Shown piece by piece: positions 7,221-29,021 of a stretch of DNA of 31,103 nucleotides (position 1 is the stretch's first letter; each line of letters starts with the position of its first letter). The translations under genes were made by a program, and so were the position numbers. The stretch comes from Pedosphaera sp. (lineage in GTDB: Bacteria > Verrucomicrobiota > Verrucomicrobiia > Limisphaerales > SIBH01), in contig JANOQV010000156.1 in assembly GCA_031414955.1 (NCBI GenBank), positions 1 to 31,103 on the forward strand, written 5' to 3'. A model generated the notes under the pieces. It saw only the letters and a list, made by a program, of their open reading frames with translations, did no database searches and had not been told where the DNA came from.

Positions 7221-9308
7221 CTAGGGCACTGAAACAAGCGGACCACTCCAGCGCTCGTCCTGCTTCGTCCGGGCCTTCACCTTGGCCCCGGCCGGACGCG
7301 TCAAGGAGGTGGTGAAGAGCCTGGCTCCGGCGGCGACGGCACCACCGGTGGCGCGCGGGTCGGTGCCGTCGAGGGTGAAGTAGATTTCCCCGGTCGGCGC
7401 GGCCAGCCGCAGGTTGCCGCCGGCGGCTTCGCCCAGGGCAGGCACGGGCGGAAACTGCTTCTCCATCCAATCGAGCCGCGTCTGGATGAAGGTCTTCAGG
7501 AAGCCGATTTCCTGCTCGTAGCTGGTGCCGACGAAGTAGTTGGGATTGATGGGCCGGCCCAGGATGGGCCACTTCTCGAAATTGCGCTGCTGGGATTCCT
7601 GAAGCAGGGCGGTGAGTTCGTCGATGCGGGCCAGAATTTTCGCGGTGGCGAAGACATTAGTGCGCAACCGCGCCCAACGATCCACGTAGCGCTGGCCGAA
7701 GTCCGGGTCGTCGAAGAGCCGCCGGTACCAGGTGCATTCCTTGTTATCGAGCTGAGGCCAGAGCCAGTATTCGGGCATCCAGCCCTGCTTGCCGTTGGCG
7801 TTGCCAAAACTAAGATTCCAGTCCCAGATCGGGTCGGCCTTGATCTTGCCACCGCGATCCTTGCTGAAGAACACGCTGAACCGGAACCCGTCCACGTTTT
7901 TGGTCGCCTCGGTGATGAGGTGGTAGTCGATGAAGGAATCCGCGTCGAGAAAGGCCCGCCAGCCGGTCGCCGGATCGCGGAAGTCATCCCCGTAGAGCGC
8001 GGCCTCGACCTGGTTGAGATGGACTTTCAACCAGGATTTTTGCGCGGCGGTGATTTCGTCCGGCTCCGGCTCGACAAAGAAGAACTCGTTCGTGCGCGTG
8101 GTCTTGAAGCTTTCCTCCTCCTTGATCGAGGTCTCGTAATCGTCGCGAAAAGCGGTCCCGCCGGCGGCTTCGGGACTGACCGTGAAGGCGTAGCCGAAAT
8201 GATTCGTGATGATGCGGCTGGCGCGGCGGCTCGAACTGGAACTGGAGTTGGAGCGCGTCACCTTCGCGGCCGGTTGGAAGCCCTGCGGATCAGCGGGGAA
8301 TCCGCCCGGACCAGTCGGATAACCCGCGCGGGTGTTTTGGTAGGTCGAGACGGTGCCTTCGCCGCCCATGGCAAACCCGGCCGTGTCGATGTGGTCCTTC
8401 TTGAAGATGTAACCGCCGGTGATGCGCGGCTCGCGGTCGTCGTCGGGCTTGAGTTTGGCGATGTCCACGCGGTCCTTGCCGCGCTTGACCCGCTCCTCGA
8501 ACACATACACTCCGGCATAATGTTGGCGGCTGAGTTTCGTGCCGGTGGGATTGACGAAAACTTCCACCAGCCTGGTGCGCGGCGCCCAGTGGCCCATCGC
8601 CGCGTGCATCTCATAAGCCACCACATCGCGGATGAGCGTCTTGTCGGGGTAGGGAGCGTAAAGCACCCAGTCAGCGTCGGCGGGCATTCCGAAAACGGAC
8701 GCCGGGGCCGGGTCGCCTTCGCCGTCGATCCATTTCACGGTGAAGGAACTCTTGGGATAACGCAGCGAGGCCCGGCCGCGCAGGTTGATCAGACAGCGCC
8801 CGGAGAAATCCGTCGCGCCCGTGAGTTTGGTCCGATCCCGGCCGCCGTCCGCGATCTGCATCGCGCCCTCGATCTTGCGCTCGTGAATGATGTTCGTTCC
8901 GAATGAGTTCACGATGATGAGCGGGATGTTGGAACTGAAACTGGCGAGTTCGTCGTCGAGCAGCGTGTAAACCGCGGCAACGGTGGCGCTGGGCGGAGCA
9001 GCCTTGGGGAAAACTCCGGCGCGAACCAGCATCGTGTTGGTCACCAGCAACGGCGCGGAATACAGCGGCGAAGCGGCGTGGGGATCGGAACCGTCGAGGG
9101 TGAAACGAATCGGCGCGTCCCCGGCGCTGGACAGTTTCACCAGAACATTCGTGCGGTAAACGCCGCCGGCCGGGAGGAAGGTCACGGCGAGCTGCTTCGC
9201 CGCATCGGCCTTGGGTTCTTTGGCCTGCAATGGTGCGAGGAGCGACAGCAACGCGACAAGCACGCAGCCGAAGACGGACTTTCCGCGTTGAGGCCAGGCC
9301 AGGTTCAT
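7221..9308 (-). CDS. Secreted CotH-family protein kinase with flanking chitobiase C-terminal/Fn3-associated domains
   Basis: Likely start MNLAWPQ (ATG 9308) followed by a signal peptide. IRFTLDGSDP..SPLYSAP and IYFTLDGTDP are Fn3-associated motifs. LRGRAS..PKSSF, DKTLIRD, YAGVYVFEERVKR, KNVDGF and PIWDWNLSFG are CotH motifs. Confidence 0.88.
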   Translation of the reverse strand: MNLAWPQRGKSVFGCVLVALLSLLAPLQAKEPKADAAKQLAVTFLPAGGVYRTNVLVKLSSAGDAPIRFTLDGSDPHAASPLYSAPLLVTNTMLVRAGVFPKAAPPSATVAAVYTLLDDELASFSSNIPLIIVNSFGTNIIHERKIEGAMQIADGGRDRTKLTGATDFSGRCLINLRGRASLRYPKSSFTVKWIDGEGDPAPASVFGMPADADWVLYAPYPDKTLIRDVVAYEMHAAMGHWAPRTRLVEVFVNPTGTKLSRQHYAGVYVFEERVKRGKDRVDIAKLKPDDDREPRITGGYIFKKDHIDTAGFAMGGEGTVSTYQNTRAGYPTGPGGFPADPQGFQPAAKVTRSNSSSSSSRRASRIITNHFGYAFTVSPEAAGGTAFRDDYETSIKEEESFKTTRTNEFFFVEPEPDEITAAQKSWLKVHLNQVEAALYGDDFRDPATGWRAFLDADSFIDYHLITEATKNVDGFRFSVFFSKDRGGKIKADPIWDWNLSFGNANGKQGWMPEYWLWPQLDNKECTWYRRLFDDPDFGQRYVDRWARLRTNVFATAKILARIDELTALLQESQQRNFEKWPILGRPINPNYFVGTSYEQEIGFLKTFIQTRLDWMEKQFPPVPALGEAAGGNLRLAAPTGEIYFTLDGTDPRATGGAVAAGARLFTTSLTRPAGAKVKARTKQDERWSGPLVSVP

Positions 9309-9488
9309 AGTGGACACGCCGTGAGTTCCTTGCTGATGGGAGAAGTTTCTGGAAAGTGTCGGCTTCTGGCAAACGGAAAGCGCAGACCGTCCGGTCATGG
9401 CATGTAAAATTATTGACGTCCGCGTCCCCCTGCCCCGTCCCTTGTTGACGAACACCACACCACCCGTTGCATTCTATGCGGGAACCAC

Positions 9489-13323: not shown

Positions 13324-15615
13324 TCACCTCCGCACGGGTCGTTCGAGAATGACGCCCTGCGACTTGCCATCCAGTTGCTCGCGCACGGAGACGGCCCGGT
13401 TGCGGATGAACAGCTTGAGCTGATGCACAGGCCGATTTGCCCCTTGTGGGTTTCCAGTCGTCGTTCGCTCCACCTTCCTGTCGCTCACCGCTTGGTCAAA
13501 TTTTTCGAGGCGAAAATCTGATTCAGCCGCAATCGGTTCACGAATGATGGCGGCGAGTTCATCGATGCGATGGTTCAATTGATCGGGCACGAAAAGTCGC
13601 GTCGAGAAATCTTCGAGGCAGTTGCGATAGAGTTGCCGGAACTCCTCCACCGCCATGACACGCTCAAGGAAACGATGCCGGCCCACCCACGGATGCCAGA
13701 TGCTGGCCCGTTCGCGCTGCGCCGTGCTGCCGAGCAGGAAGAATCCGCCCCACGCCAGATCGAGATCCCACGGGATGAAGCCAAACTTGTTCGAGCGCGG
13801 GTCGAGATAGACGTAAAAGTTCTGGCCGTTCGACAAAAAGCTGTCGTAGCTGGACAGCAGCACCTCGCCCGCGAGGAAACGAGCGAACTCATCCAGGTCG
13901 AGAAAGTCAGTCAGCCGTGCGGCGAAATCCGTGTCGTCGGCCCATGACACCAACCGCGCAAACTCAATCACACGCTGCCGTTGCTCCGGCGTGGCCTTGG
14001 TTTTCAGATCGTAAACCGCCGCGTAGTTCGTCCAGTCGTCGCCCAGATGCTCGAAGATCTGGTAGATCACCGGCTTGAAGACGGGCGCAACCTTCGAGCC
14101 AAAATGCTCGGCGGCAAAAGCCCCGTTCACCGGCTCCACCAAGGCATAGAGGCCGAGCGGCTTCCGTGGCCACTTCCCGTCCACGCTCGCCGTCAGGTAA
14201 GCGTAAGCGGTGCGCGGTGCAGGCACGCCTGTGGCGCGAAAAAACTCATAGGCCAGCGTGTCGCTCAGGTAAGAACGATCATCAATGAGGTTGTGCAGGT
14301 TCAATTCATCGACCGCCCCGAGCTTCTGACCCAGGGCAAACTTGTTCAGGTCCACCTTGAAGGACTGCTTCGAGCCAGCGCTGGAACTGAGATACGTGCC
14401 GTTGCCTTTGAAGCGCGCGGCCACGTTCGTAAACCTCCGCCCGCCCATCTCGAACTCCGCCTGCGTCCAGTCGAAATCAAACCCCAGCACGCCCGCCAGG
14501 CCGCTGCGTTGCGACTCCGGATTGCGCAGCAGAATGGTGCCGTCGGGCTGAAGGAAATTCGGCAGGGGACCGAAGCGCCGCGGTTGAATCGCCTTCCATT
14601 GCTCACGCGTGAAGTGCAAGTGCGCGAGCCAGATGTTCGTGGTCTGGAAGAAATCCGAAGCGGTGCGAACGAGCGCCGCGTTGCGCTCCGGCGACATGCT
14701 GTTCGTCGGCCACGGGCGAGCCGGTTGGGCCAGACCGGGCACAGTTCGCGCCTCATGCCGCACGGACCAGAGGAGAAATGCCTTAAAGAACCGGCTATGG
14801 CCCGTGCGACCGTCGAGGCGCCACGCGGCCACCACCAGCAGGACAAAACACAGCAGCAGCGCCGGCACTCCGATGATCAGCCGACGCCGCCAGCGCGCCC
14901 AGGCCAGGACGCTCAAGGTGCGGCGGGCCAGTGGGAGCGACGGTCTCTTCCCAAATTTATCTTCGATGGAGCGTACGATGTCGAAGGCCAGGCCATCCGG
15001 CACGGGTGCCTCACCAGCCTCGACCAGCAGCGTGCGCGACAAAGTTTCGGCGTCCGCATCCTGGCCCACTCCACCCCGGCGCAGGAATTTGGAAAGCTTC
15101 CGGAGGCCCGCTGCCGTCCGCTGGCCGACGCGCCGCTCGCTGACCCGCAGGATTTGCGCGGATAGAGCCGGGCTGTGATGAAGAAAAATCTGCAATAAGA
15201 GGGCGTCGCGCTGCTTGGACGACAGCCGAGCCATCGCCGGGTCGAGTTTAGGGGCCATCCTCGTCCATAGATCCGTCCCCGGCGGAAGCGGCTCGCGGCG
15301 TCCGAAGATGAACCACCGTGGTCGTCGCGGCCTGAATCCTCCTGGGAGCTTGCGGCAGGCGATGGCCGTGACGTGATACAGCCAGCCCGCCAGAACATTC
15401 TTACCTCGCAAGCGCCGCGCACGACGGGCCAAAACCAGGAAGACCGCCTGCGTGACCTCCCCGGCGTGCCGCGCACTTTGCGTCCGTCGATACGCCGCCG
15501 CGAAGACAAAGGTCAGATACCGATCGACCAGCAGACGAAAGCTTCCGGGATTGGGGCGGCGCGCGGCCTCGAGACATTCTCGATCCGTTGGAAGGACTGG
15601 CGGAACGGCGCTCAT
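13324..15615 (-). CDS. ECF sigma factor (regions 2 and 4) - transmembrane helix - CotH kinase domain fusion
   Basis: Region 2 FRLLVDRYLTFVFAAAYRR..AGEVTQAVFLVLARRA..LAGWLY; region 4 LDPAMARLSSKQRDALLL..ILRVSERRVGQRTAAGLRKL; TM LIIGVPALLLCFVLLVVAAW (14821-14880); CotH RFKGNGT..KQSFKVDLN, GVPAPRTAY, LGLYALVE, YDSFLSNGQNFY, FIPWDLDLAWG. One uninterrupted frame. Confidence 0.87.
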   Translation of the reverse strand: MSAVPPVLPTDRECLEAARRPNPGSFRLLVDRYLTFVFAAAYRRTQSARHAGEVTQAVFLVLARRARRLRGKNVLAGWLYHVTAIACRKLPGGFRPRRPRWFIFGRREPLPPGTDLWTRMAPKLDPAMARLSSKQRDALLLQIFLHHSPALSAQILRVSERRVGQRTAAGLRKLSKFLRRGGVGQDADAETLSRTLLVEAGEAPVPDGLAFDIVRSIEDKFGKRPSLPLARRTLSVLAWARWRRRLIIGVPALLLCFVLLVVAAWRLDGRTGHSRFFKAFLLWSVRHEARTVPGLAQPARPWPTNSMSPERNAALVRTASDFFQTTNIWLAHLHFTREQWKAIQPRRFGPLPNFLQPDGTILLRNPESQRSGLAGVLGFDFDWTQAEFEMGGRRFTNVAARFKGNGTYLSSSAGSKQSFKVDLNKFALGQKLGAVDELNLHNLIDDRSYLSDTLAYEFFRATGVPAPRTAYAYLTASVDGKWPRKPLGLYALVEPVNGAFAAEHFGSKVAPVFKPVIYQIFEHLGDDWTNYAAVYDLKTKATPEQRQRVIEFARLVSWADDTDFAARLTDFLDLDEFARFLAGEVLLSSYDSFLSNGQNFYVYLDPRSNKFGFIPWDLDLAWGGFFLLGSTAQRERASIWHPWVGRHRFLERVMAVEEFRQLYRNCLEDFSTRLFVPDQLNHRIDELAAIIREPIAAESDFRLEKFDQAVSDRKVERTTTGNPQGANRPVHQLKLFIRNRAVSVREQLDGKSQGVILERPVRR

Positions 15616-16145: not shown

Positions 16146-16418
16146 ATGTCGCAGGCCATGATGGATCCGGAGCAGGTTCGGCGCTTTGCCGAGGAACTGC
16201 AGCGTTTCAACCGCGACCTCACGAACCGGATGGGTTCACTGCAAGCGCGTTTCGGCGCGCTGGGCGAATCCTGGCAGGATCAGGAACACACCAAGTTCTC
16301 CGATGAGTTCAAACAGACCGTGAAGGCGCTGAAGAAATTCGCCGAGATGGCCGACCAGCATGTCCCGTATCTGTTGCGCAAGGCGCAGCGCATCGAGGAA
16401 TACCTGAACCAGCGCTGA
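16146..16418 (+). CDS. WXG100-like (EsxA-like) type VII secretion protein, 90 aa
   Basis: Strong RBS (GAAAGGAAA). MSQAMMDPEQVRRFAEEL start resembles the WXG100 (V/M)DPE.L pattern; two amphipathic helices joined by central LGESWQD..KF (W-x-D variant). Confidence 0.85.
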   Translation: MSQAMMDPEQVRRFAEELQRFNRDLTNRMGSLQARFGALGESWQDQEHTKFSDEFKQTVKALKKFAEMADQHVPYLLRKAQRIEEYLNQR

Positions 16419-16435
16419 TGAAGGCGTGCCGTCGC

Positions 16436-16516
16436 AAGTTGAAGGTTGGAAGTTGTAGGTTTGCCCGCCGGCAGATCGGTGACCTCCTTCCACTTTCAAC
16501 CTTCAACCTTCAACCT
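16436..16516. repeat. Inverted heptamer arrays (AGGTTGA)n...(TCAACCT)n forming a long imperfect hairpin
   Basis: Left units AAGTTGA AGGTTGG AAGTTGT AGGTTTG from 16436; right units TCCACTT TCAACCT TCAACCT TCAACCT ending at 16516. Confidence 0.8.
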
Positions 16517-16523
16517 CGTTAAC

Positions 16524-17090
16524 ATGCCCGGAGCACACGTCACTTCGACCGAGGCCATCGAGTCTTTCCGCGCCAATCTTATCGTCTATCTGAGCAAGAC
16601 CCGTCCGATTCTCGAGGACGCCTGCGACGAAGTCGTCCGCACCCGGCAGTGGCTGCAGTCGGACCGGCGCATTCACTGGGAGAACCAATTGCGCAAGCGC
16701 ACGCGCCAACTGGAGGACGCCAACCAGGCTCTCTACAGCGCGCGGCTGGCCAATCTGCGCGAACCGACGATGGCCGAGCAGAATGCCGTGCTCCGGGCCA
16801 AACGCGCCCTCACCGAGGCGGAAGACAAGTTGAAGCGAATCAAACGCTGGATGATGGAGTTTGATCAACTCGTGGGGCCGCTGGTGAAACAACTGGAGCA
16901 ATTGCGCACGATGTTGTCGAACGACATGCCCAAGGCGGCGCTCCATCTCTCGCAGGTGCTCAAGACGCTCGAGGCGTACGCCAATGTAATTCCATCCGCA
17001 GCGTCCAACCCCGCACCGGCGGCGGAGGCCAAGAGTGACGAAGCCGCTGCGGAGGGTGGAACGAGTTTAGCGCCGGGGAAAATTTCATGA
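16524..17090 (+). CDS. Alpha-helical/coiled-coil hypothetical protein, 188 aa, in the T7SS-like cluster
   Basis: ATG 16524; heptad-rich sequence with an Ala/Pro/Glu low-complexity tail; its stop overlaps the next start (ATGA 17087-17090). Confidence 0.8.
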   Translation: MPGAHVTSTEAIESFRANLIVYLSKTRPILEDACDEVVRTRQWLQSDRRIHWENQLRKRTRQLEDANQALYSARLANLREPTMAEQNAVLRAKRALTEAEDKLKRIKRWMMEFDQLVGPLVKQLEQLRTMLSNDMPKAALHLSQVLKTLEAYANVIPSAASNPAPAAEAKSDEAAAEGGTSLAPGKIS

Positions 17091-17299
17091 ACATCAGCTC
17101 AAATGGAAAATTGCTGGCTGCGGCCACCAAGGATTTGTCCGTCCGGTGGAGCGAGACCACGGACGCCTGGAAAGACACCAAGGCCCGCGAGTTCGAGCAG
17201 CGCTACCTCGCGGAGCTGATCGCCAGCGTGGATCGGGCGGTGCCGGTTTTTGATGACCTCGACAAACTTGTCTCAAGAGTCAGGAGCGACTGTGAGTAG
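17087..17299 (+). CDS. Second, short WXG100-like protein, 70 aa
   Basis: WSETTDAWKDTKAREFEQRY parallels LGESWQDQEHTKFSDEF of the 90-aa protein; overlaps both neighbours, suggesting translational coupling. Confidence 0.72.
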   Translation: MNISSNGKLLAAATKDLSVRWSETTDAWKDTKAREFEQRYLAELIASVDRAVPVFDDLDKLVSRVRSDCE

Positions 17300-20200
17300 C
17301 CAGTTGACGGTGACGCAGACCACCGAACTGCTCGAAAGCCTCAAGGGCACCGTCCGTGACTTCGCCGCCGCCGAGGAGAAACTGGTGCGCGAATTCCGGG
17401 CCAAGAACGACGCGGCGCAAAAACGCTTCGAGGAAGACACGGTCGCACACGACGCGCAACTCACGGTGGAACTCAACGAGGCGGAGACGCTGGACGTCTC
17501 GGCAAAAAAGCGGGCGCAGTCCCGCCACGACCGGCGCAAGACGCGACTCGCGAAAGCCCTCAAGGCCAGCCACAAGACCGCGCTGGAGCGCATCGACAAC
17601 CAGGAAGGGCGCGTCAAATACCAGAGCCAGAAAGGACAGCTCGACACCAAACGCTGGCGCGTGGACACGCTGGCTCAGAACGACGCAACGCTGTTGGAGT
17701 TCCAGCAGCGTCTCGCCGAAAATCGCGCCACGTTTGCCGCTCTGGAGGAGCAGGCTCGGAAACTATTTCGCGGCTATGGGAAATTCCGTCGCGCCGTGGA
17801 CAAGGCTGACGTGCTCCCGAACACCGACTTTGCGCCCGACGAATACCAGTTGCTGGAAAAGCTCGGCCAGTTGCACAACCGCACCAGCGAAGACTTGGCC
17901 CGATTCAAGAAACGGTTCCTGCCCCTGCTCTTCCGCCTGCTGCCGCTCTGGCTGTTAACCGTGCTGATTCTTGCCGCCGGGGGCGGAGCCGTGCCGTTGC
18001 TTCAGCGTCAGGACCACGCTTCGATCACATTCGTCCACGGCGGCATCGGTGCGGGCGTTCTGTTGGTGCTGGTCCTCGCGGTATATTTCGCCGGCGCGGG
18101 CAAGGCCAAAGCGCCAGCCACCCACATCGCAAATGAACTGGAGACCGCGCGCCGGTTGCACGATTCCTGCGCGGAGAAGTCGCAGGCACGCCACGCGCAG
18201 GAGATCACGCGCCTCGAAACCGAGGCGCAGAATGCCATCGATGGCTTCAACGCCAACTGGCGCTCGGCCTTGCAGCAGGCCGAGCAAGCCCGGGAACTCT
18301 GGCCCATCCGCATCGAGGAGAAGGGCCGCCACGCCAACGACACCAATGAGCGCCAGCACGGCGCGCGACTGGCGAAGGCTGGGAGCGAACACGCCGCAGC
18401 CGTGAACCGGCTGAATCAAGAAGCGACCGCGCGCCAGCAGCAGTTCACCACCGCGCACGAGACGAAGGTCGCCAAGTTCACCGGCGATTATCAGGCGCAC
18501 TGGCAGAAGCTCGAAGCCGATTGGAAGCGCCTCACTCAGCCCATCTACGATTCGATTCAGGCCACGAACCAGAGCGCCACGGAGAACTTCCTGCCCTGGC
18601 AACCGCCGCTCTGGGCAAACTGGACGCCACCGTCCAGCTTCAAGAACAGCGCCCGGTTCGCCAGCCTCGAAGTGGACGTGAAGCGCTTCGCTGAAGCCGC
18701 GCCCCAGGATCCGCGGCTGGCCTTTCCCGGCCCCACTACCATTTCACTGCCGCTCGTGCTCACGTATCCGCAGCAAGGCTCGATTCTCTTCGAGACGACC
18801 AAGACCGGTAACGAGCCGGTCTTCGAGGCGCTGAACAACATCATCTTCCGCCTGCTCGCCACCACGCCGGCGGGCAAGTTGAGCTTCACCATCATCGATC
18901 CGGTGAAGCTCGGGCAGAACTTCTCCGGCGTCATGCACCTGGCCGATTACGAGGACAACGTGCTCAACGGCCGCATCTGGACGCAGCCGAATCAGATCGA
19001 GGAACGGCTCGCCAATCTCAACGAGCACATGGAGAAGGTCATCCAGATGTATCTCCGCAACGAGTACGAGACGATTGCGGAATACAATCGCGAGGCCGGC
19101 AACATCGCGGAGAAATATCACTTCGTCGTCGTGGCGGACTTTCCGGCGAACTTCACTGAAAGCGCCGTGCGGCGGTTGCTGCGCATCGCGGCCAGCGGCG
19201 CGCGCTGCGGCGTGTTCACGCTCATCCACTGGGACCATCGCCACACCACGCCACCGGATTTCTTCCCGGAGGAATTGCGCAAGAGCAGCGTTTGCATCAA
19301 CGCCGCCGGTGAGCAGTTCGTGCTCGCCCACCCCATGCTGCCGCGCGCCCGCGTGCTGCTCGACGCACCGCCCGCCCCTGAGTTTGCCACGCAGTTTCTG
19401 CACACCGTCGGCGAAAGCGCGCGTGGCTCGAACCGTGTCGAAGTTCCCTTCGCGCAGATCGCACCGCCCGAGAACGAAGTCTGGTCGATCGAGACCGCCG
19501 AGGAATTGCGCGTCCCAATCGGCCGCTCCGGCGCGACCAAGCTCCAGTATCTCGCCATCGGCAAGGGCACGCGCCAGCACACGCTCATCGCGGGCAAGAC
19601 CGGTTCCGGCAAATCGACCCTCTTCCACGTCATCATCACCAACCTTGCGCTCTGGTGCAGTCCCGAGCAGGTCGAGTTCTACCTCATCGACTTCAAGAAG
19701 GGCGTCGAGTTCAAGGGCTACGCGGCCAAGCGGCTGCCCCACGCGCGCGTCGTCGCCATCGAGAGCGATCGCGAATTCGGCCTGAGCGTGCTGCAAAAGC
19801 TCGACGAGGAATTGAAACGGCGCGGCGAATTGTTCCGTCAACTCGGCGTGCAGGACGTGGCGGGCTACAAGCGCGCGGGCGGCACCGAGCCGATGCCGCG
19901 CACGCTGCTCATAATCGACGAGTTCCAGGAATTCTTCGTCGAGGACGACCGCATTTCGCAGGCCGCGAATTTGTTGCTCGACCGCATCGTGCGCCAGGGC
20001 CGCGCCTTTGGCATTCATTGCCTGCTCGGCTCACAAACGCTCGGCGGCGCTTACACGCTGGCCCGCACGACGATTGGCCAGATGGTCATCCGCATCGCGC
20101 TCCAGTGCAACGAAGCCGACGCCTACCTGATCATGGACGAGAACAATCCCGCGCCCCGGCTGCTTTCGCGTCCCGGTGAAGGCATCTACAACGACATGGC

Positions 20201-21179
20201 GGGCATGAGCGAAGGCAACAGTCCGTTCCAGGCCGTGTGGATCAGCGACGACCAACGCGACGCGCATCTCGATCACGTCCGCTCCCTCACCGATGCGAAG
20301 GGATTGGCCTACCCCGGCCCCATCGTCTTCGAAGGCAACGCTCCCGCCGATGTGCGCGACAATCCTGTCCTGCGCGACTTGCTCGCCGCCGGAGTGCAGG
20401 GCACCGGCCCGGCTCGGATTTGGCTCGGTGCCGCCAATTCGATCAAAGGCCCGACCGAAGTCGTCTTCCAGAAACGCAGCGGCAACAACCTGCTCCTCGT
20501 CGGCCAGCGCGACGAGGCGGTGCTCGCCATCTTCTCGCTCTCGCTCCTCGCACTCGCCGCTCAATTCCCGCGCGGCGCGGCGAAGTTCATCGTCTTCGAA
20601 AGCACCGCGCCTAACTCGCCCGAGCGGGCCTTGCTCGAACGCGTGGTGCGCGCTCTGCCCCACGAAACCGTCCTCGCCAAGCCGGGCGACCTCACGGACG
20701 TGCTGAACGGCCTCGCCGACGATTTGCAGAAGCGCACCGACGACGAACACGCGCCCGCTCCGGTCACGTTCCTGTTCCTCCACGGAATGCAGAACTTCAA
20801 GAAGCTCAAGCAGGACGACGACTTCGGCTTTTCCTCCGGCGACGGTGGGCCGAATCCGGCCCAGCAGTTGCAGAAGCTGATCAGCGAAGGCCCGGGCCAC
20901 GGCATCCACGTCCTCGCCATGCTTGACACCTACAACAACGTGAACCGCTTCCTGGGCCGGAAGGGACTGACCGAGTTCGAAATGCGCGTGCTCTTCCAAA
21001 TGAGCACCAACGACTCCGCCAGTCTCTGCGACGATCCCAAGGCCAGCAACCTCGGCCTGCACCGCGCGCTCCTTTACAACGAGCAGGAAGGCTATCTGGA
21101 AACGTTCCGCCCGTACGCGCTGCCGACGGGGGAGTGGCTGGACGAGGTGAGCCGCAGGCTTTCAGAAGCGAAGGCATAG
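17292..21179 (+). CDS. EssC/EccC-like membrane-bound FtsK/SpoIIIE ATPase, about 1295 aa
   Basis: AGGAG at 17282-17286 then GTG 17292. N-terminal coiled coil, two TM helices (about 17916-18101), second coiled coil, three RecA-like units. The central unit has HTLIAGKTGSGKST, YLIDFKKG, LLIIDEFQE, RQGRAFGIH..LGSQ and RIAL. Confidence 0.92.
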   Translation: MSSQLTVTQTTELLESLKGTVRDFAAAEEKLVREFRAKNDAAQKRFEEDTVAHDAQLTVELNEAETLDVSAKKRAQSRHDRRKTRLAKALKASHKTALERIDNQEGRVKYQSQKGQLDTKRWRVDTLAQNDATLLEFQQRLAENRATFAALEEQARKLFRGYGKFRRAVDKADVLPNTDFAPDEYQLLEKLGQLHNRTSEDLARFKKRFLPLLFRLLPLWLLTVLILAAGGGAVPLLQRQDHASITFVHGGIGAGVLLVLVLAVYFAGAGKAKAPATHIANELETARRLHDSCAEKSQARHAQEITRLETEAQNAIDGFNANWRSALQQAEQARELWPIRIEEKGRHANDTNERQHGARLAKAGSEHAAAVNRLNQEATARQQQFTTAHETKVAKFTGDYQAHWQKLEADWKRLTQPIYDSIQATNQSATENFLPWQPPLWANWTPPSSFKNSARFASLEVDVKRFAEAAPQDPRLAFPGPTTISLPLVLTYPQQGSILFETTKTGNEPVFEALNNIIFRLLATTPAGKLSFTIIDPVKLGQNFSGVMHLADYEDNVLNGRIWTQPNQIEERLANLNEHMEKVIQMYLRNEYETIAEYNREAGNIAEKYHFVVVADFPANFTESAVRRLLRIAASGARCGVFTLIHWDHRHTTPPDFFPEELRKSSVCINAAGEQFVLAHPMLPRARVLLDAPPAPEFATQFLHTVGESARGSNRVEVPFAQIAPPENEVWSIETAEELRVPIGRSGATKLQYLAIGKGTRQHTLIAGKTGSGKSTLFHVIITNLALWCSPEQVEFYLIDFKKGVEFKGYAAKRLPHARVVAIESDREFGLSVLQKLDEELKRRGELFRQLGVQDVAGYKRAGGTEPMPRTLLIIDEFQEFFVEDDRISQAANLLLDRIVRQGRAFGIHCLLGSQTLGGAYTLARTTIGQMVIRIALQCNEADAYLIMDENNPAPRLLSRPGEGIYNDMAGMSEGNSPFQAVWISDDQRDAHLDHVRSLTDAKGLAYPGPIVFEGNAPADVRDNPVLRDLLAAGVQGTGPARIWLGAANSIKGPTEVVFQKRSGNNLLLVGQRDEAVLAIFSLSLLALAAQFPRGAAKFIVFESTAPNSPERALLERVVRALPHETVLAKPGDLTDVLNGLADDLQKRTDDEHAPAPVTFLFLHGMQNFKKLKQDDDFGFSSGDGGPNPAQQLQKLISEGPGHGIHVLAMLDTYNNVNRFLGRKGLTEFEMRVLFQMSTNDSASLCDDPKASNLGLHRALLYNEQEGYLETFRPYALPTGEWLDEVSRRLSEAKA

Positions 21180-21188
21180 GGAAGATCA

Positions 21189-22052
21189 GTGAAACCCGAG
21201 AAGAACACTGGGAAGCCTCTGGAAAATGCCGTGCGCCTCATCCAGCAATCTATCCTCAAAAATCAACCAAACCTAAAGGATGGGGAGTTTACAATAGAGG
21301 CCAACAAGCGAGTGACAGTCAAAGGCACCCGCCATGAACTTGATCTTTTCGTTGTTCGACATCCCGGGACGCCTTACGAAGCAAGCTTTGTCTTTGAATG
21401 CAAGGATTGGAAAAAGCCGGTCTCCAAAAATGAAGTCATAATCCTTGAAGCGAAAGTGAACGCAATTGCCGCGACTCGAGGCATTCTCGTCGCTAGGGAA
21501 ATATCCAAGGACGCAGCAGCACTTATCGAAGCTAATCAAAGGCTCCAGTTTCACCGGTGCAGCGAAAGTATTTGGCCGCTTCTCAGCACTGAAATCGTCC
21601 ACACCGTACACGATCCATTTGCGCATACAGCTCGGGTTACGCCTCAGACGAGTTCCATGCCGCTACCGACAAACTTTGTAGACGCAGTTTGTCAGTGGGG
21701 AAATCGGATTGCCCCCTTTCGAGTGATTGCGGACGAACAATTGAAAGAACTTGTGCGATACGATCAACAGGCCCGCGGGTATCTCTACAAATCTGAGGGC
21801 ACGCATTGGTTTCAAGGTCTGAGACGGATCGAATTTGAGCCTGGGGAATGCACTGTGGGAGGTGTGGAATTGGCCGTGTTGGAAATTATCGCGAGGTATT
21901 TCGTGAGGGTCGCCGTCACGCTGCCCAAATATCGGTTTTCAATTGATGGACAAGGCCAGGTTCACACTTTCGAATTGCGCGACCAAGACTTTCCGACGGG
22001 GCAACTCGACATTCAACTCGTCTTAACAGGACCTTTTAAGCCAAAGGCATGA
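21189..22052 (+). CDS. PD-(D/E)xK restriction-endonuclease-fold protein (Mrr_cat-like)
   Basis: GKPLE..V, RHELDLFV, FECKDWKKPVSKNEV, GILVA motifs; visibly more AT-rich codon usage than neighbours; GTG start 9 nt after the ATPase stop. Confidence 0.8.
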   Translation: MKPEKNTGKPLENAVRLIQQSILKNQPNLKDGEFTIEANKRVTVKGTRHELDLFVVRHPGTPYEASFVFECKDWKKPVSKNEVIILEAKVNAIAATRGILVAREISKDAAALIEANQRLQFHRCSESIWPLLSTEIVHTVHDPFAHTARVTPQTSSMPLPTNFVDAVCQWGNRIAPFRVIADEQLKELVRYDQQARGYLYKSEGTHWFQGLRRIEFEPGECTVGGVELAVLEIIARYFVRVAVTLPKYRFSIDGQGQVHTFELRDQDFPTGQLDIQLVLTGPFKPKA

Positions 22053-23498: not shown

Positions 23499-26400
23499 GT
23501 GAAAATCCAAAGCTGTTTTCGGTTTCGTTTCGTTCTCCTCGCCTTGGTGTGGCTGCTGGGTGCGTCGGGGTTTGTTCGCGCCGCTGCGCCGGATCTCACG
23601 GCCGCGAATCTCCCGGCGATCGACACCACCTACAACTACAGTCTCGGCCCGACGGGGATGCGGGGATGGATTTATCGCAACACCGGGAACGACGTGGGCG
23701 CGCAGGGGCTGATGTCGGCGGCCAGTCCGTGGCAGATCCTGGTGGTCGCGGTGGGCGCGAACACGCCGGCGGCGGGCATCATGGCGAGCAATGACGTGAT
23801 CCTCGGCGTGAGCGCGGGCGCGGGCAACTTGCCGGTGCCGCTCTTCACCAATGATTCGCGCAAGAGTCTGGGCTGGGCGATCGGCGCGGCCGAGGCGGGC
23901 GATGGTGTCTTGAATCTCAAACGCTGGCGCGCGGGGGTCACGAACGACGTGGCGATTCAGTTGCCGCTCTCGAACATCGCCTACAGCGCCACGGCGCCGT
24001 TTGATTGTCCCAAGTCCGCGCTGATTCTTTCCAACGCCGGCAACATCATCTCGAACAAAAATTTCAACGCCGGCGCTCCGGGCGATCCGACGCTGGGGCT
24101 GGCGTTGCTCGCCAGCGGTAACACCAATTACCTCGCCAAGGCGCGGACCTACGCCCGTTCGATTGCGCCCACGAATCTGTCGCTTCGCTTTGTGCCGGGA
24201 CAGTCCACGCGCGGCGAGGGCTTGTGGATTTGGGACTACGGTTACCGGGGCGTGTTTCTCGCCGAGTATTTTCTACTCACCGGCGACACCAACGTATTGC
24301 ACGGGCTCAACGAATACGCGGTGGCGCTCGCCCAGGCCCAGAGCCGCTACGGCACGTTCGGTCACGGTGGCGCTGTCTTGAAGGCGAATGGCGAGTTCCA
24401 CGGAACGATTCCTCCCTACGGACCGGTGAACTCCGCCGGGCTCGTGGCGAACATGGCCATCGTTCTGTGGAAGAAGGCGGCCGTGGCGGGTGGGCACGAG
24501 GTCGATCCGGAAATCAATCCGGCGATTGAGCGCGCGGCGAAGTTCTTCGCCTACTACGTGCAGAAGGGAAACATCCCCTACGGCGAGCACGAGCCGTGGT
24601 ACGAACACGCCGGCAATGGCAAGGAATCCGCGGCGGCGTTGATGTTCACGCTGATGGGCGACCGTCCGGCGGAGACGGAGTATTGGACGCGCATGGTCGT
24701 GGCCGGCTACAACGGCCGCGAATATGGGCACACCGGCCAGGGGTTCAGCTATCTCTGGGGCGCGATGGCCGCGAATGTCGGCGGCACCAATGCCGTGGCG
24801 GCTTACTTGAAGGAGATTCGCTGGCACCTGGACTTGTCGCGTCGCAGCGACGGCTCGTTTACTTACGACGGGGTCGAGCAATACGGCGGCTCGGCCACCT
24901 ATGATTACTGGAGCAACGCCAGCTACTACGGCATCGATCCCACGGCCTCCTATGTCCTGACCTACGCACTGGCGAAGCAGAAGCTTCTCATCACCGGCCG
25001 GAACGCCAATCCGACGAACTGGTTTAGTACCACGGTGGTTTCGAACGCGATCTGGGCGGGGACGTTCGACCGGTTGCACCCCACCTATAGCAGCAACGAA
25101 CTCGTGGCCGCGCTGAGCGAATACGATCCGCTCGTGCGGCGCTGGGCGGCGATCGGTCTGGGCACGCGCTTCCCGGCGAGCGCGTCGAGCTTGATCCTGA
25201 TGGCCGGCAGCACGAACGCCTTCCTGCGCGAGGCGGCGTGTCAGGCGCTGGGCGTCATCGCGAATCCCAGCGCGTTGACGGTGCTGGGCGAGCGATTAAA
25301 CGATCCGGATGTCTGGGTGCGTGCGAAGGCGGCCGTGGCTTTGCGGAACTACAGTCCGGCGGCGTTCAGCCCGCTCGTGACCAACATGCTGACGGCGTTC
25401 ATCACCAACGCCACCGATCCGAACGTGATCGTGTGGGACGATCCGTTGCAGAACGCCAATCGCCACCTGTCCATGGCCCTCTTTGGTAATGGCGTCCCCG
25501 ACGGCAGTCCCGGAAATAACGTGGCCAGCTACACGATCACTGCGAATACGAACCTGCTCTATCCCGCGGTGCGGGTGGGCTTGCAGCAGCCGGACTCGCA
25601 TCCGAGGGTGGGCGTGGCCAGCTTTGCCCTCAACCGGCTGACGCTCACGCACGTCAAGTATCTCCTGCCGGACCTCTTCGAGGTCGCCGCCGTCCCCAGC
25701 CAGGCGGATACGATGTGGAGCATGGACGCGCGCGGGTTGGGCATCTCGACCCTGGCCAAACACAAAGTTGCCGAAGCGGTTCCGCTCGCGCTCTCCATAC
25801 TGGTCACGCCGGAGGGCTTTGGTTGGAATGACGAGGGCTTCAAAATACCCGCGCTCAGGGCGCTGACGAACTACGGCGATTCCGTCCGCTGGACGTTGCC
25901 CGTTCTCCGGGACCACTCGGAAACGTGGGAGCCGACTTCGTCCGAGTTCGTGACGCTGAACACCTCAATCGCCGGGATCGACAGCGCGATCATCTCGCCC
26001 GCCACCATCACCAATCTCCATCCTGTCGCCCACTCGCAGGTCGTCATCACGACGAACGCGAAGGCGATCACACTCGGCGGCTTCTCGTGGCGAACCGCGA
26101 CCGTGAGCTTCACGAACATCACCGCGCCCGCGCACGGCACGCTCACCGGCACCGCGCCGAACCTGACCTACACGCCGACGGGCGGTTACACCGGCCCGGA
26201 CAGCTTCACGTTTCAAGTGAGCGACAGCGTGAGCAACTCGCCGTCCGCAACCGTGAGCCTCATCGTGGGCACGCCTGCGGGCACCGGATTGAAAGGCGAG
26301 TATTTCGACAACGCGGATTTCACGACGTTGAGGTTTTCGCGCACGGATCCGCAGGTGAATTTCGACTGGGGCACCGGCTCGCCGAGCAACACCATCGCGG

Positions 26401-29021
26401 CGGATACCTTCAGTGTGCGCTGGAGCGGCCTGCTGCTCGCGCCCGAAACCGCGAGCTACCTGTTCTCGACCCTCAACAGCGACGGCGTCCGGCTCTACGT
26501 GAACGGCGTGCAGGTGATCGATGACTTCGTGGATCACACGACGCGATGGAACGACGGCACGCCCATCGCGCTGACGGCGGGCCAGCCCTACGAAGTGCAA
26601 ATGGATTACTACGAGAACACCGGCTCGGCGGTGGCGAAGCTCAAGTGGACGGGGCCATCCTTCGCCGGATCGAACGGCGTGATCATCGGCCGCGAGTGGC
26701 TGTTCGATGGCACGGGCGTTTCGAATCACGCGGCCATCGCCTATCCGCAGAGCGTGACGATGCTGCAAAACACCACGCGGGCCATCGGGCTGACCGGCGC
26801 GGGAAATCCTCCGGGCTACGCCATCGTGACGTCGCCGGTGAATGGCGCGCTCACCGGCACGCCGCCCAACGTGACCTACACCCCGGCGACAAATTTCAGC
26901 GGGACGGACAGCTTCACTTTTCTCGTCAACAACGGCCTTAGCAACTCGGCCCCGGCCACGGTGTCCATCGGCGTTTGGGCCGGGCTGCCGGTTTCGTTTT
27001 ATTGGACCAACCTTTTGTCCGGCAACTGGAGCGTCGCCGCCAACTGGACCAATTCGACCGGCGTGCCGGGCGCGCCCGCAGCTACAGGGCAGCCGTTCTA
27101 CAATCTGAACTTCAACCGCGCTGGCACCTACACCGTGACCAACGATTTGAACCACGGGTTTCAACTGAACCAGCTCAACGTCGCCGCCACGGTGACGTTC
27201 GACGGCGCGAACGCCCCGGCCTTCACCGGCAATGGCCCCATCCGGCCGCAGCTCAACCAGAACAGCGTCAACGCGGTTACGTTCAACGCGCCGGTCATCC
27301 TCGCGGCCATGACCAGCCTGGGCGGATCGGGTGCCGGGCCGGTGACAATCCACAGCATCATTTCCGGCACGGGCGGTCTGACCATGAACAACGAGGGAAC
27401 GCTGACGCTCAACTACGGCACGAACACTTACAGCGGCGGCACCATCCTCAATGCCGGCACCGTCACCTTTCCCGCTTTCGCCTCCAGCGCGATGTCGATC
27501 CTCGGTACAGGGCTGTTGACAATCAACAGCGGAGCCACGCTCGCCTGCAACCGAACTTACTTCGCGAACAGCGTCACGCTGAACGGCGGGATCATCACGG
27601 CGGGCAATTCTTTCGTTTCGACCTTCGCCGGGCCGGTCACCCTGGGCGGGATTCCGACCTTTGATATAGCGGGCAACTTTTCCATCTCGGGCAACATGAG
27701 CGGGCCGGGCGGCTTGCTTAAAACCGGTAACAGCTCGTTGAGCGTCTCCGGCACGAACACCTTCACCGGGGCCACCTTCGTCACAGACGGCACCTTGACC
27801 TTCAGCAAATCCGTCTCCGTCGGCAGCGGCGCTTTGCACATCGACGACGGCGCGGTGGTGAACTTGAATTTCACCGGCAACCGCACCATCGCCGCGTTAA
27901 TCCTCGGCGGCACGAACCAGCTCGACGGCACTTACGGCGGCACTAATTCCCCCGCGACCATCAAGGACCCGCACTTCACCGGCACCGGCACGGTCACGGT
28001 GAACGCGGTGAATGAACCGCCGTCGTCGTGCGTGCTCACGTCGCCGACGAACGGCCAGTTCGTCGCGCTGCCGCCCACGCTCACCGCCACCGCCACCGAC
28101 CCAGATCTCAATCTGGCGCGCGTCAGTTTCTACGCTGATGGCAGCGAGGTGGGCGAGGATACGTCCGCGCCCTACAGCTTCACCTGGAGCAACGCGACCG
28201 CCGGAGTCCATTCGATCTTCGCCGTCGCCATCGACACCGGCGGACAGCGGCTGACCTCGGTCGTGGCGAACGTGACGTTGACCTTCGCGATGAGCAACGC
28301 GTTCGTGCCGGCCGGCGCGGTGTGGCGTTACTTCGACAAAACCAACGACCTCGGCACCGCCTGGCGCAGCAACTCCTTCAGCGACGTGACGTGGAGCAAC
28401 GGTCCCGCGCGCCTTGGCTTTGGCAATGATGGCGAAGTCACCAAAGTCGCGAGCAACCGGCAATGGACGACCTACTTCCGCCGCGCGCTCTACGTCCCCG
28501 ACCCGGCGTTCGTGCAAACCTTCGCCGCCCGCCTCACTCGCGACGACGCCGCGGTGGTGTATTTGAACGGCGCGGAAATCTGGCGCGACTCCAACCTGCC
28601 CGCCGGCTTCATCACCAACCAGACGCCGGCCCTCGCCTCCATCGCCGGCGAAACCAACTGGGTCGCCCTCAACCTTCCGCCCTCGACCCTCACCCTGCTC
28701 ACGCCCGGCTGGAACCTGCTTGCCGCCGAAGTTCACCAGTCGGCGCTCACCAGCAGCGACCTCGGTTTCAATTTGGAACTGACCGGCACGGTCGTCCTCG
28801 CGCAACCGCCCGAGTTGAGCGCGACCCTCGCCGGCTCCAGCCTTGTCCTCACCGCGCCCGACACTGCGAATTACTTCACGCTCCACTCCGCCACCAACCT
28901 CGCGCCGCCCGTGGTGTGGACGCTCGCCACGAACACCGTCGTCTTTTCCAACAACCAGTGGCGCGTGACGCTGCCCGCCGCGACGAACGGCCAGCGTTTC
29001 TACCGGCTGCAATCGCCGTGA
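23499..29021 (+). CDS. 1840-aa secreted modular protein: DUF6288-type N-terminal region, HEAT repeats, Ig-like domains, PA14, autotransporter-associated beta-strand repeats, C-terminal domain
   Basis: Signal peptide. YSLGPTGMRGWI, W.Y..FLAEY.L.TGD, YG.VNSAG, IPYGEH and GHTG are recalled as DUF6288-type. LNDPDVWVRAKAA is HEAT; HGTLTGTAPNLTYTP..DSFTF occurs twice; GLKGEYF..NFDWG..FSVRW is PA14; NTYSGGT and NTFTGAT are PATR; DTSAPYSFTW is Ig-like. Confidence 0.82.
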   Translation: MKIQSCFRFRFVLLALVWLLGASGFVRAAAPDLTAANLPAIDTTYNYSLGPTGMRGWIYRNTGNDVGAQGLMSAASPWQILVVAVGANTPAAGIMASNDVILGVSAGAGNLPVPLFTNDSRKSLGWAIGAAEAGDGVLNLKRWRAGVTNDVAIQLPLSNIAYSATAPFDCPKSALILSNAGNIISNKNFNAGAPGDPTLGLALLASGNTNYLAKARTYARSIAPTNLSLRFVPGQSTRGEGLWIWDYGYRGVFLAEYFLLTGDTNVLHGLNEYAVALAQAQSRYGTFGHGGAVLKANGEFHGTIPPYGPVNSAGLVANMAIVLWKKAAVAGGHEVDPEINPAIERAAKFFAYYVQKGNIPYGEHEPWYEHAGNGKESAAALMFTLMGDRPAETEYWTRMVVAGYNGREYGHTGQGFSYLWGAMAANVGGTNAVAAYLKEIRWHLDLSRRSDGSFTYDGVEQYGGSATYDYWSNASYYGIDPTASYVLTYALAKQKLLITGRNANPTNWFSTTVVSNAIWAGTFDRLHPTYSSNELVAALSEYDPLVRRWAAIGLGTRFPASASSLILMAGSTNAFLREAACQALGVIANPSALTVLGERLNDPDVWVRAKAAVALRNYSPAAFSPLVTNMLTAFITNATDPNVIVWDDPLQNANRHLSMALFGNGVPDGSPGNNVASYTITANTNLLYPAVRVGLQQPDSHPRVGVASFALNRLTLTHVKYLLPDLFEVAAVPSQADTMWSMDARGLGISTLAKHKVAEAVPLALSILVTPEGFGWNDEGFKIPALRALTNYGDSVRWTLPVLRDHSETWEPTSSEFVTLNTSIAGIDSAIISPATITNLHPVAHSQVVITTNAKAITLGGFSWRTATVSFTNITAPAHGTLTGTAPNLTYTPTGGYTGPDSFTFQVSDSVSNSPSATVSLIVGTPAGTGLKGEYFDNADFTTLRFSRTDPQVNFDWGTGSPSNTIAADTFSVRWSGLLLAPETASYLFSTLNSDGVRLYVNGVQVIDDFVDHTTRWNDGTPIALTAGQPYEVQMDYYENTGSAVAKLKWTGPSFAGSNGVIIGREWLFDGTGVSNHAAIAYPQSVTMLQNTTRAIGLTGAGNPPGYAIVTSPVNGALTGTPPNVTYTPATNFSGTDSFTFLVNNGLSNSAPATVSIGVWAGLPVSFYWTNLLSGNWSVAANWTNSTGVPGAPAATGQPFYNLNFNRAGTYTVTNDLNHGFQLNQLNVAATVTFDGANAPAFTGNGPIRPQLNQNSVNAVTFNAPVILAAMTSLGGSGAGPVTIHSIISGTGGLTMNNEGTLTLNYGTNTYSGGTILNAGTVTFPAFASSAMSILGTGLLTINSGATLACNRTYFANSVTLNGGIITAGNSFVSTFAGPVTLGGIPTFDIAGNFSISGNMSGPGGLLKTGNSSLSVSGTNTFTGATFVTDGTLTFSKSVSVGSGALHIDDGAVVNLNFTGNRTIAALILGGTNQLDGTYGGTNSPATIKDPHFTGTGTVTVNAVNEPPSSCVLTSPTNGQFVALPPTLTATATDPDLNLARVSFYADGSEVGEDTSAPYSFTWSNATAGVHSIFAVAIDTGGQRLTSVVANVTLTFAMSNAFVPAGAVWRYFDKTNDLGTAWRSNSFSDVTWSNGPARLGFGNDGEVTKVASNRQWTTYFRRALYVPDPAFVQTFAARLTRDDAAVVYLNGAEIWRDSNLPAGFITNQTPALASIAGETNWVALNLPPSTLTLLTPGWNLLAAEVHQSALTSSDLGFNLELTGTVVLAQPPELSATLAGSSLVLTAPDTANYFTLHSATNLAPPVVWTLATNTVVFSNNQWRVTLPAATNGQRFYRLQSP

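Follow-up and report, generated by a model that had tools for sequence, protein, structure and literature searches.

A stand-alone, toxin-free cassette of a WXG100 protein and an FtsK-family ATPase in Verrucomicrobiota: export pore or membrane-tethered motor?

Does a locus that sets a WXG100-like protein beside an FtsK/EccC-family ATPase, with little else of a type VII secretion system (T7SS), encode an export pore or a machine put to another use? The question is raised by four genes, here named A to D, on contig JANOQV010000156.1 of Pedosphaera sp., of which a stretch of 31,103 nt was analysed (the window, whose numbering is used throughout). The initial annotation saw in them either a stripped-down T7SS exporting a helical bundle to the periplasm or a machine repurposed for a non-secretory role; the repurposed machine fits the data better than periplasmic export through the ATPase. 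The cassette is a real, stand-alone unit under selection. Because some relatives have lost the transmembrane (TM) part of the ATPase and kept the cassette intact, the motor likely acts on helical proteins inside the cell, and not as a stand-alone export pore. The four open reading frames (ORFs) are co-oriented at the positions first called, and the last three overlap (B/C by 4 nt, ATGA; C/D by 8 nt):

16146–16418, plus strand: gene A, 90 aa; WXG100/EsxA-like hairpin protein of the HP0062 type
16419–16523, plus strand: A–B spacer, 105 nt; inverted-repeat hairpin
16524–17090, plus strand: gene B, 188 aa; long helical hairpin with a low-complexity tail
17087–17299, plus strand: gene C, 70 aa; W-x-D helical protein
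17292–21179, plus strand: gene D, 1295 aa, GTG start; FtsK/EccC-family ATPase
17292–18587, plus strand: stalk of D, residues 1–432; two helical arms around the TM hairpin
17916–18101, plus strand: TM hairpin of D (residues 209–227 and 252–270); two hydrophobic segments, with an in-frame deletion in some relatives
18639–19427, plus strand: module 1 of D; degenerate RecA-like, matching the EccC DUF (D0) domain
19479–20306, plus strand: module 2 of D; the sole D module with intact motifs
20328–21161, plus strand: module 3 of D; degenerate RecA-like domain

In known systems EccC/EssC is the central pore (PMC11217815; PMC13355648; here and below, published work is cited from those parts of each paper that were available). 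Among 101 distinct near-complete relatives of D (one stop-containing and one duplicate row having been dropped), a hydrophobic segment of 70–89 residues is present in 97, and in the other four it is shortened in frame to 24–38 residues. The TM-less forms belong to three Prosthecobacter and to genome G303, the nearest sister of the window in the D tree, and represent at least two independent deletions. All four keep the catalytic motifs, and A-B-C lies adjacent to D in three of the four loci. The ratio of nonsynonymous to synonymous substitution rates (dN/dS; simple Nei-Gojobori estimates, with dS near 1) of D is 0.20–0.22 among the three TM-less Prosthecobacter and 0.21 between the window and G303, compared with 0.28 for a TM-bearing pair; in the TM-less comparisons it is 0.07–0.11 for the ATPase core and 0.06–0.09 for A. 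The TM columns are no more conserved (0.39) than the coiled coil, and the plasmid ATPases of Caballeronia, Helicobacter, Rhodococcus and Deinococcus have no N-terminal TM hairpin. Since the hairpin was lost cleanly under continued selection, as a pore element should not be, comparison of these sequences makes it likely that it serves D as an anchor rather than as an EccC-type pore. This loss under continued purifying selection, together with a lack of any cargo in the loci examined, weakens the proposed export to the periplasm through the ATPase.

The integrity of the unit is apparent in the best 80 of at least 521 confirmed D relatives (from at least 600 stretches), nearly all titled Verrucomicrobiota and fetched with D as the only bait. 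The order A-B-C-D is kept in 67/80 of these loci, as expected of the co-conservation on which the four-gene claim had been made to depend; 9 end at a contig edge, and 4 lack at least one small gene within 8–10 kb. Clustering of 7265 flanking ORFs yielded no fifth conserved gene, the largest clusters (antisense shadows aside) being generic families present in 7/81 loci; the neighbours are of housekeeping type, with neither recurring defence genes nor a conserved immunity gene close by. Of 60 relatives, 37 hold a single copy of A; B matches strongly in those 37, where it is single and short, and the D core is present in 36 plus one divergent type; in three A+B genomes without a D core, D is broken at a contig end, and in one genus (2 genomes) A-B-C and D lie on separate contigs, both intact. 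A is by far the most conserved member (median identity 70%, as against 51% for D, 43% for B and 41% for C). A phylum-wide sample holds A in 9/300 genomes and B in 5/300. With regard to mobility, the spread through the phylum is patchy, the flanks vary and kin reside on plasmids, yet the cassette is single-copy, has a host-like GC content at third codon positions (GC3 0.76–0.84) and yields a tree that is broadly taxonomic. None of 46 pattern matches on viral contigs was confirmed as carrying A.

On the evidence of its LpxC and Omp85 genes, the host (genome 95.9% complete, 5.8% contamination) is a diderm member of the Verrucomicrobiota, in agreement with the diderm host of Planctomycetes-Verrucomicrobia-Chlamydiae (PVC) type first supposed and with the almost exclusively verrucomicrobial relatives of D. 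The initial annotation saw none of the remaining T7SS parts in the window, and the search that it advised across the whole genome likewise gave no match to EccB, EccD, YukC/EssB, YukD, EsaA or LXG, control genomes being positive (MycP, EssA, EccE and EccA were not searched). A is the only WXG100 match in the genome.

The assignment of A as WXG100-like stands with respect to Pfam, where it exceeds the WXG100 cut-off (38.7 bits against 27.3; E = 1.3e-9), although its motif is W-x-D and not W-x-G, and it falls below the TIGR03930 cut-off (33.7 against 44.85). Its best solved relative is HP0062 of H. pylori (E = 5e-11), ahead of Bacillota EsxB/EsxA. W43 and D45 are present in 73/73 sequences, the length is exactly 90 aa in 72/72 relatives, and dN/dS is 0.06–0.12. 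The bipartite T7SS export motif (W43, G45 and D87 in EsxA) is not reproduced: A has W43, D45 and L87 in 73/73, and E84, three places before the EsxA D87 position, in 67/73.

Gene D proves to be a two-TM FtsK ATPase, as first described, with a match to Pfam FtsK_SpoIIIE (E = 1e-34) and hydrophobic segments at 209–227 and 252–270; its RecA-like modules number three, not four. A model of residues 96–1295 (mean predicted local distance difference test score, pLDDT, 80; predicted template modelling score, pTM, 0.51) has helices flanking the TM hairpin, followed by three α/β modules. The modelled stalk helices span residues 97–158, 184–206, 247–384 and 388–432, with column conservation of ~0.4, and the stalk could be up to ~25 nm long if straight (our own estimate, at 0.15 nm per residue). 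Module 1 superimposes on the DUF of EccC5 (8rin; Z 15.6, root-mean-square deviation 3.8, 225 residues aligned), is without a Walker A motif and has highly conserved columns. Module 2 contains GKTGSGKST (768–776), DEFQE (876–880) and RQGRAFG (901–907), residues that are invariant in 66/66 sequences except for K769 (64/66), and has a dN/dS of 0.07–0.14. Module 3 resembles FtsK motors about as closely as it does the last domains of EccC/EssC (Z 17–23), and GQR/SEE-type residues replace its Walker A. The model implies a layout of stalk, EccC DUF, one active and one degenerate domain.

The T7SS kinship first proposed is upheld by the WXG100 match of A and by a Foldseek search with the D model, which places T. 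curvata EccC first (E = 2e-25; FtsK, E = 2e-9). The identification of D with the EssC/EccC core component is not: D scores far below the EccCa/EccCb/EssC cut-offs, and in a tree of active modules (39 rows, with long branches flagged and the sister group of D plus plasmid kin unresolved) D and its plasmid kin are split from EccC/EssC D1 and D2 and from FtsK by a long branch with support 86/99. A test of D and the plasmid kin as one clade gave an approximately unbiased p value (p-AU) of 0.37, by which such a clade is neither rejected nor demonstrated. Nor does D group with DNA-translocating FtsK, a possibility raised at the outset: it scores 26 bits against PRK10263 (cut-off 1566), and the genome's own FtsK, on contig C65, lies outside the D clade. 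The D tree groups the host genus (8 rows, support 100) and broadly follows taxonomy. Separate coiled-coil genes with a C-terminal TM segment occur beside two TM-less ATPases (L109:10746–11357 and L110:7601–8029); the former matches the N-terminal arm of D (E = 3e-4, although coiled-coil matches can be spurious), which suggests that this arm may be a fused fifth subunit. At G000 C102:54691–60048 (minus strand), an open frame of 1786 aa that ends in an FtsK-like domain may be an SspH/DptH-type defence ATPase.

What does this motor handle? Gene B, annotated as a helical 188-aa protein, is modelled by AlphaFold2 as a single long hairpin (helices 5–76 and 83–155, mean pLDDT 87) with a disordered tail. 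Such tails, of 4–79 aa and rich in P/A/S/E/T/G, are found in 74/74 Verrucomicrobiota homologues and start after the tyrosine of an end motif, [LI]-x6-[LIV]-x2-Y, which is present in 73/73 A (L76-x6-I83-x2-Y86 in the window), 74/74 B and 34/35 coiled-coil nucleases, compared with 9/1122 background windows; the Helicobacter nuclease is without it. The B profile matches the N-terminal parts of a 442-aa coiled-coil nuclease (E = 7.6e-4) and of a Rhodococcus protein of 314 aa (E = 1.5e-6 in a set of 36 proteins), and end-to-end profile-profile comparison with the coiled-coil nuclease family gives P 0.018 (local) and 0.0014 (global), control coiled coils giving 0.08–0.13. These sequence matches make it likely that B is the carrier hairpin of the hairpin-nuclease fusions of mobile kin, here without nuclease or immunity gene. 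Neither B nor C has a Pfam family, and searches of PDB sequences with their profiles returned nothing meaningful; fold searches with B gave generic hairpins only, with no Foldseek match at E ≤ 0.001, and a bridging search from the Rhodococcus hairpin gave 2 close relatives only. In the ESM Atlas, the largest cluster of B look-alikes has 2908 members (175 aa) and is mostly Planctomycetota.

Gene C was also called WXG100-like. It has no Pfam match and carries W-x-D rather than W-x-G, but a weak profile likeness to A is detectable (profile-profile P 0.013; its profile matches A-family proteins at E = 5e-6), weak evidence that C may be WXG-like; W21, W28, D30 and F36 are invariant in 72 homologues. 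C is likely the partner of B, and a Lap/PE-like role may be supposed by analogy. Its near-invariant terminal D-C-E was considered as an acidic export signal or functional cysteine and rejected: it is conserved because of the overlap with the GTG start of D, which the Cys codon TGT supplies in 60/68 sequences, and it disappears wherever D does not follow.

The module has been described before. No functional study of it, as the initial annotation had supposed, and no description of a toxin-free four-gene set was found in the literature searched, subscription journals and supplements lying outside it. Zhang 2012 (PMC3482391, Table 1 note 6) counts among the mobile versions of T7SS the “solo WXG domains” that go with a YueA-like ATPase of three domains in verrucomicrobia, in planctomycetes and in other groups. 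The cassette is an instance of these, having three HerA/FtsK domains, the middle one alone being active, and a solo WXG protein beside the ATPase in a verrucomicrobial diderm host. The note itself, as available, is silent on gene layout, stalk, TM hairpin and B/C genes and speaks of “mobile versions”; the cassette, by contrast, is single-copy, its composition resembles that of the host, and within the host's order it is broadly vertical. Bell 2024 (PMC11090510) describes a defence-linked CoCoNuT form, in which a TM-less long-coiled-coil ATPase is accompanied by a pair of WXG proteins, by a coiled-coil nuclease and by a small protein resembling an inhibitor. It shares with the cassette the three-module ATPase with its N-terminal coiled coil, two WXG-like proteins and the gene order, with a coiled-coil protein second. 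Its D-ExK nuclease is, however, fused to the coiled coil, with a small putative inhibitor and a TM-less ATPase in a defence locus; the cassette stands alone without nuclease or inhibitor, usually with a TM hairpin, and is not of the CoCoNuT III-A EssC-like extension, since B ends after the hairpin and inhibitor and VWA/TerY-P neighbours are absent. The CoCoNuT-type form occurs in 2/300 phylum genomes, as a separate type.

In Helicobacter, WxG plus FtsK has been termed a minimal T7SS set (Uchiyama 2016; PMC4978471). The HP0062/HP0066-type cluster (PMC4978471; PMC3397514) includes the W-x-D homodimer HP0062, the closest solved structure to A, and the plasmid gene order equals that of the cassette, but it encodes a WHH nuclease with SMI1/KNR4 immunity and a shorter ATPase (823 aa) without TM hairpin. 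The nuclease-bearing order (A, a long helical protein with a nuclease end, a small immunity-like protein, a 76-aa protein, the ATPase) is found in Caballeronia and Helicobacter plasmids, ~55 metagenome loci and two Verrucomicrobiota genomes. On a Rhodococcus plasmid (L107:6748–12178), beside ter genes, a full-length D homologue bears an N-terminal TerD domain; after it come a B-like hairpin carrying an additional C-terminal domain, a protein of 73 aa and a homologue of A. T7SSa (EccC) and T7SSb (EssC) share with the cassette a WXG100 protein, the succession of two TM helices, stalk, DUF and active D1 and, by analogy, helical rod partners. In contrast to their ATPases, with four C-terminal NTPase-like domains (PMC11217815), that of the cassette has three RecA-like modules, a much longer stalk, a 200-aa N-terminal arm and no FHA domain, and belongs to a separate clade; W-x-D, a diderm, lipopolysaccharide-bearing host and the failure to find YukD, EccD, EccB, EssB or EsaA set it further apart. 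The variants covered by the available text of Garrett 2024 (PMC11217815) are Gram-positive only. The cassette is a member of the family noted in 2012, and not of the T7SS defined by EccC/EssC plus accessory parts; its toxin-free state and dispensable TM hairpin are absent from the papers that could be searched and are new relative to them.

Our tentative proposal, to which we give slightly less than an even chance, is that the cassette is a motor, domesticated and cargo-free, which works at the inner membrane on the remodelling of its own WXG-like rods. D would be a putative hexameric motor whose long coiled-coil stalk ties it by the tip to the inner membrane; on the cytoplasmic side it would spend ATP on gripping and remodelling the small proteins, with no export pore of its own. 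By analogy with T7SSb (PMC13355648; PMC10801868), A would prime the motor as an EsxA-like homodimer, B and C would form an LXG-Lap/PE-PPE-like rod, and the common L-x6-L-x2-Y end would be a handle read by the motor; A is set apart from the B-C pair because HP0062 is dimeric, EsxA is separate from LXG-Lap in T7SSb, and conservation differs between them. The origin may lie in a mobile module of WXG protein, hairpin-nuclease, immunity protein, small protein and ATPase, domesticated through loss of nuclease and immunity gene, the direction (toxin loss or gain) not being rooted; with these lost, the rods themselves would be the working product, through cycles of assembly and disassembly at the membrane.

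Several points weigh against this proposal. In 97 ATPases the TM hairpin is retained, its loop short (median 12 aa) and its charge positive-inside, as in EccC; the forms without it might work through a different channel or have changed function; and the Prosthecobacter stem is long (0.41). The homology of B to the nucleases is modest (profile-profile probability 3–7%), the end motif was chosen after the alignments had been seen, and C has no detectable homology to the 76-aa protein of CoCoNuT-type kin, the equivalence being positional only. The WHH nuclease and SMI1/KNR4 immunity protein of the Helicobacter kin are the usual signature of an exported toxin, and no target or output of the remodelling has been identified.

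Some of these points would favour a true minimal T7SS, in which six D form an EccC-like pore through their TM hairpins and A dimers and B-C rods are exported to the periplasm as structure or signal. The EccC order from TM hairpin to active D1 is kept in D, S. intermedius EssC needs the Walker motifs of D1 only (PMC13355648), and comparative papers name such sets mobile or minimal T7SS (PMC3482391; PMC4978471; PMC11090510). We nevertheless regard this as unlikely, if a serious contender, given unchanged purifying selection on TM-less cassettes, unexceptional conservation of the TM columns, the accessory membrane subunits found neither in the flanks nor in the genome, and a WxG plus C-terminal acidic export motif that is out of register in A (D45, L87). 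Cargo might instead be encoded elsewhere in the genome, as an orphan hairpin-toxin or diverged substrates, with B as stub or adaptor. Kin do use the same hairpin as a nuclease carrier, and distant paralogues of so fast-evolving a protein as B could escape detection; however, searching the genome with profiles brought up no further copy of A, B or C (best match outside the operon E 0.2), relatives yielded only five weak extra matches to B (E 0.008–0.04), no longer B homologue was found among candidates of 407–2000 aa (weak evidence), and a conserved immunity gene is missing nearby, which leaves this reading very doubtful.

We think it just as hard to believe that the cassette is an anti-phage or stress-triggered suicide device in which activated D drives the helical rods into the membrane of its own cell. 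There are kin within TerY-P/CoCoNuT defence loci, FtsK/HerA ATPases serve in defence systems and D matches the SspH and mad8 profiles, but the PADLOC matches are limited to the generic ATPase core, A is on no viral contig, and the single copy, host-like GC and housekeeping-type surroundings without recurring defence genes point elsewhere. A toxin-free, ESCRT-like machine that PVC bacteria would have domesticated from a type VII-like toxin module is improbable, though less so; in it, A, B and C would form polymers on the inner membrane or insert into it, and the stalk-tethered FtsK-family motor would recycle them. Compared with the ESCRT-III/PspA/Vipp1 superfamily, B matches CdvB1/B2 at E = 0.012 and Snf7 and CHMP4B at Z 9.2–9.4, with unrelated hairpins reaching Z 10.8.

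Around and within the operon there is considerable local variation. The A–B spacer hairpin is made of short TTCAACC-type repeats (predicted fold −39.8 kcal/mol, without a shuffle control), of which the genome has 41 similar runs; it is not conserved, many relatives having a short spacer instead. A sigma-70 promoter search for the cassette gave no match, and no upstream motif is common to more than one clade. A Mrr_cat-type, restriction-endonuclease-like gene (21189–22052, plus strand; GC content 0.50) starts 9 nt after D; it was rejected as a member of the unit on its GC3 of 0.51 and its non-recurrence in 80 loci and genus relatives, and is likely a recent insertion. Divergent from the cassette, 13324–15615 (minus strand) encodes a 763-aa fusion of an extracytoplasmic function (ECF) sigma factor (regions 2 and 4) with a CotH kinase domain; a second CotH gene lies at 7221–9458, and 23499–29021 (plus strand) encodes a protein of 1840 aa in which DUF6288, HEAT, Ig-like, PA14 and PATR domains occur. 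Elsewhere, four loci (L010, L017, L020 and L025) have insertions of 0.7–6 kb within the operon (B/C or C/D), one with a Gp49-like (DUF891) gene, and in G169 and G289 (L201:1135–2798; L202:283–2680) a Ser/Thr kinase gene replaces D after A-B-C and B is tail-less. Five records titled Acidobacteriota, Klebsiella, Bifidobacteriaceae or Akkermansia muciniphila (L008, L011, L045, L050 and L077) are nested among Verrucomicrobiota ATPases and are likely mislabelled or mixed bins.

How folded helical rods move, and why EsxA is needed for all other export, are open questions in type VII systems. Besides its motor, the cassette contains only a protein like EsxA and a carrier pair that is empty; natural alleles have or lack the TM hairpin of the motor, and this toxin-free four-gene set offers a direct way to ask whether an EccC-type ATPase alone makes a pore. 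If it does not, the task of a widespread PVC module, known since 2012 as a mobile T7SS, would be something else than secretion. Should the ESCRT-like reading be true, WXG100 proteins would do non-secretory work on membranes, and ATP-gated release, not an EccC pore, would be the way in which the TM-less ATPases of toxin-bearing kin act.

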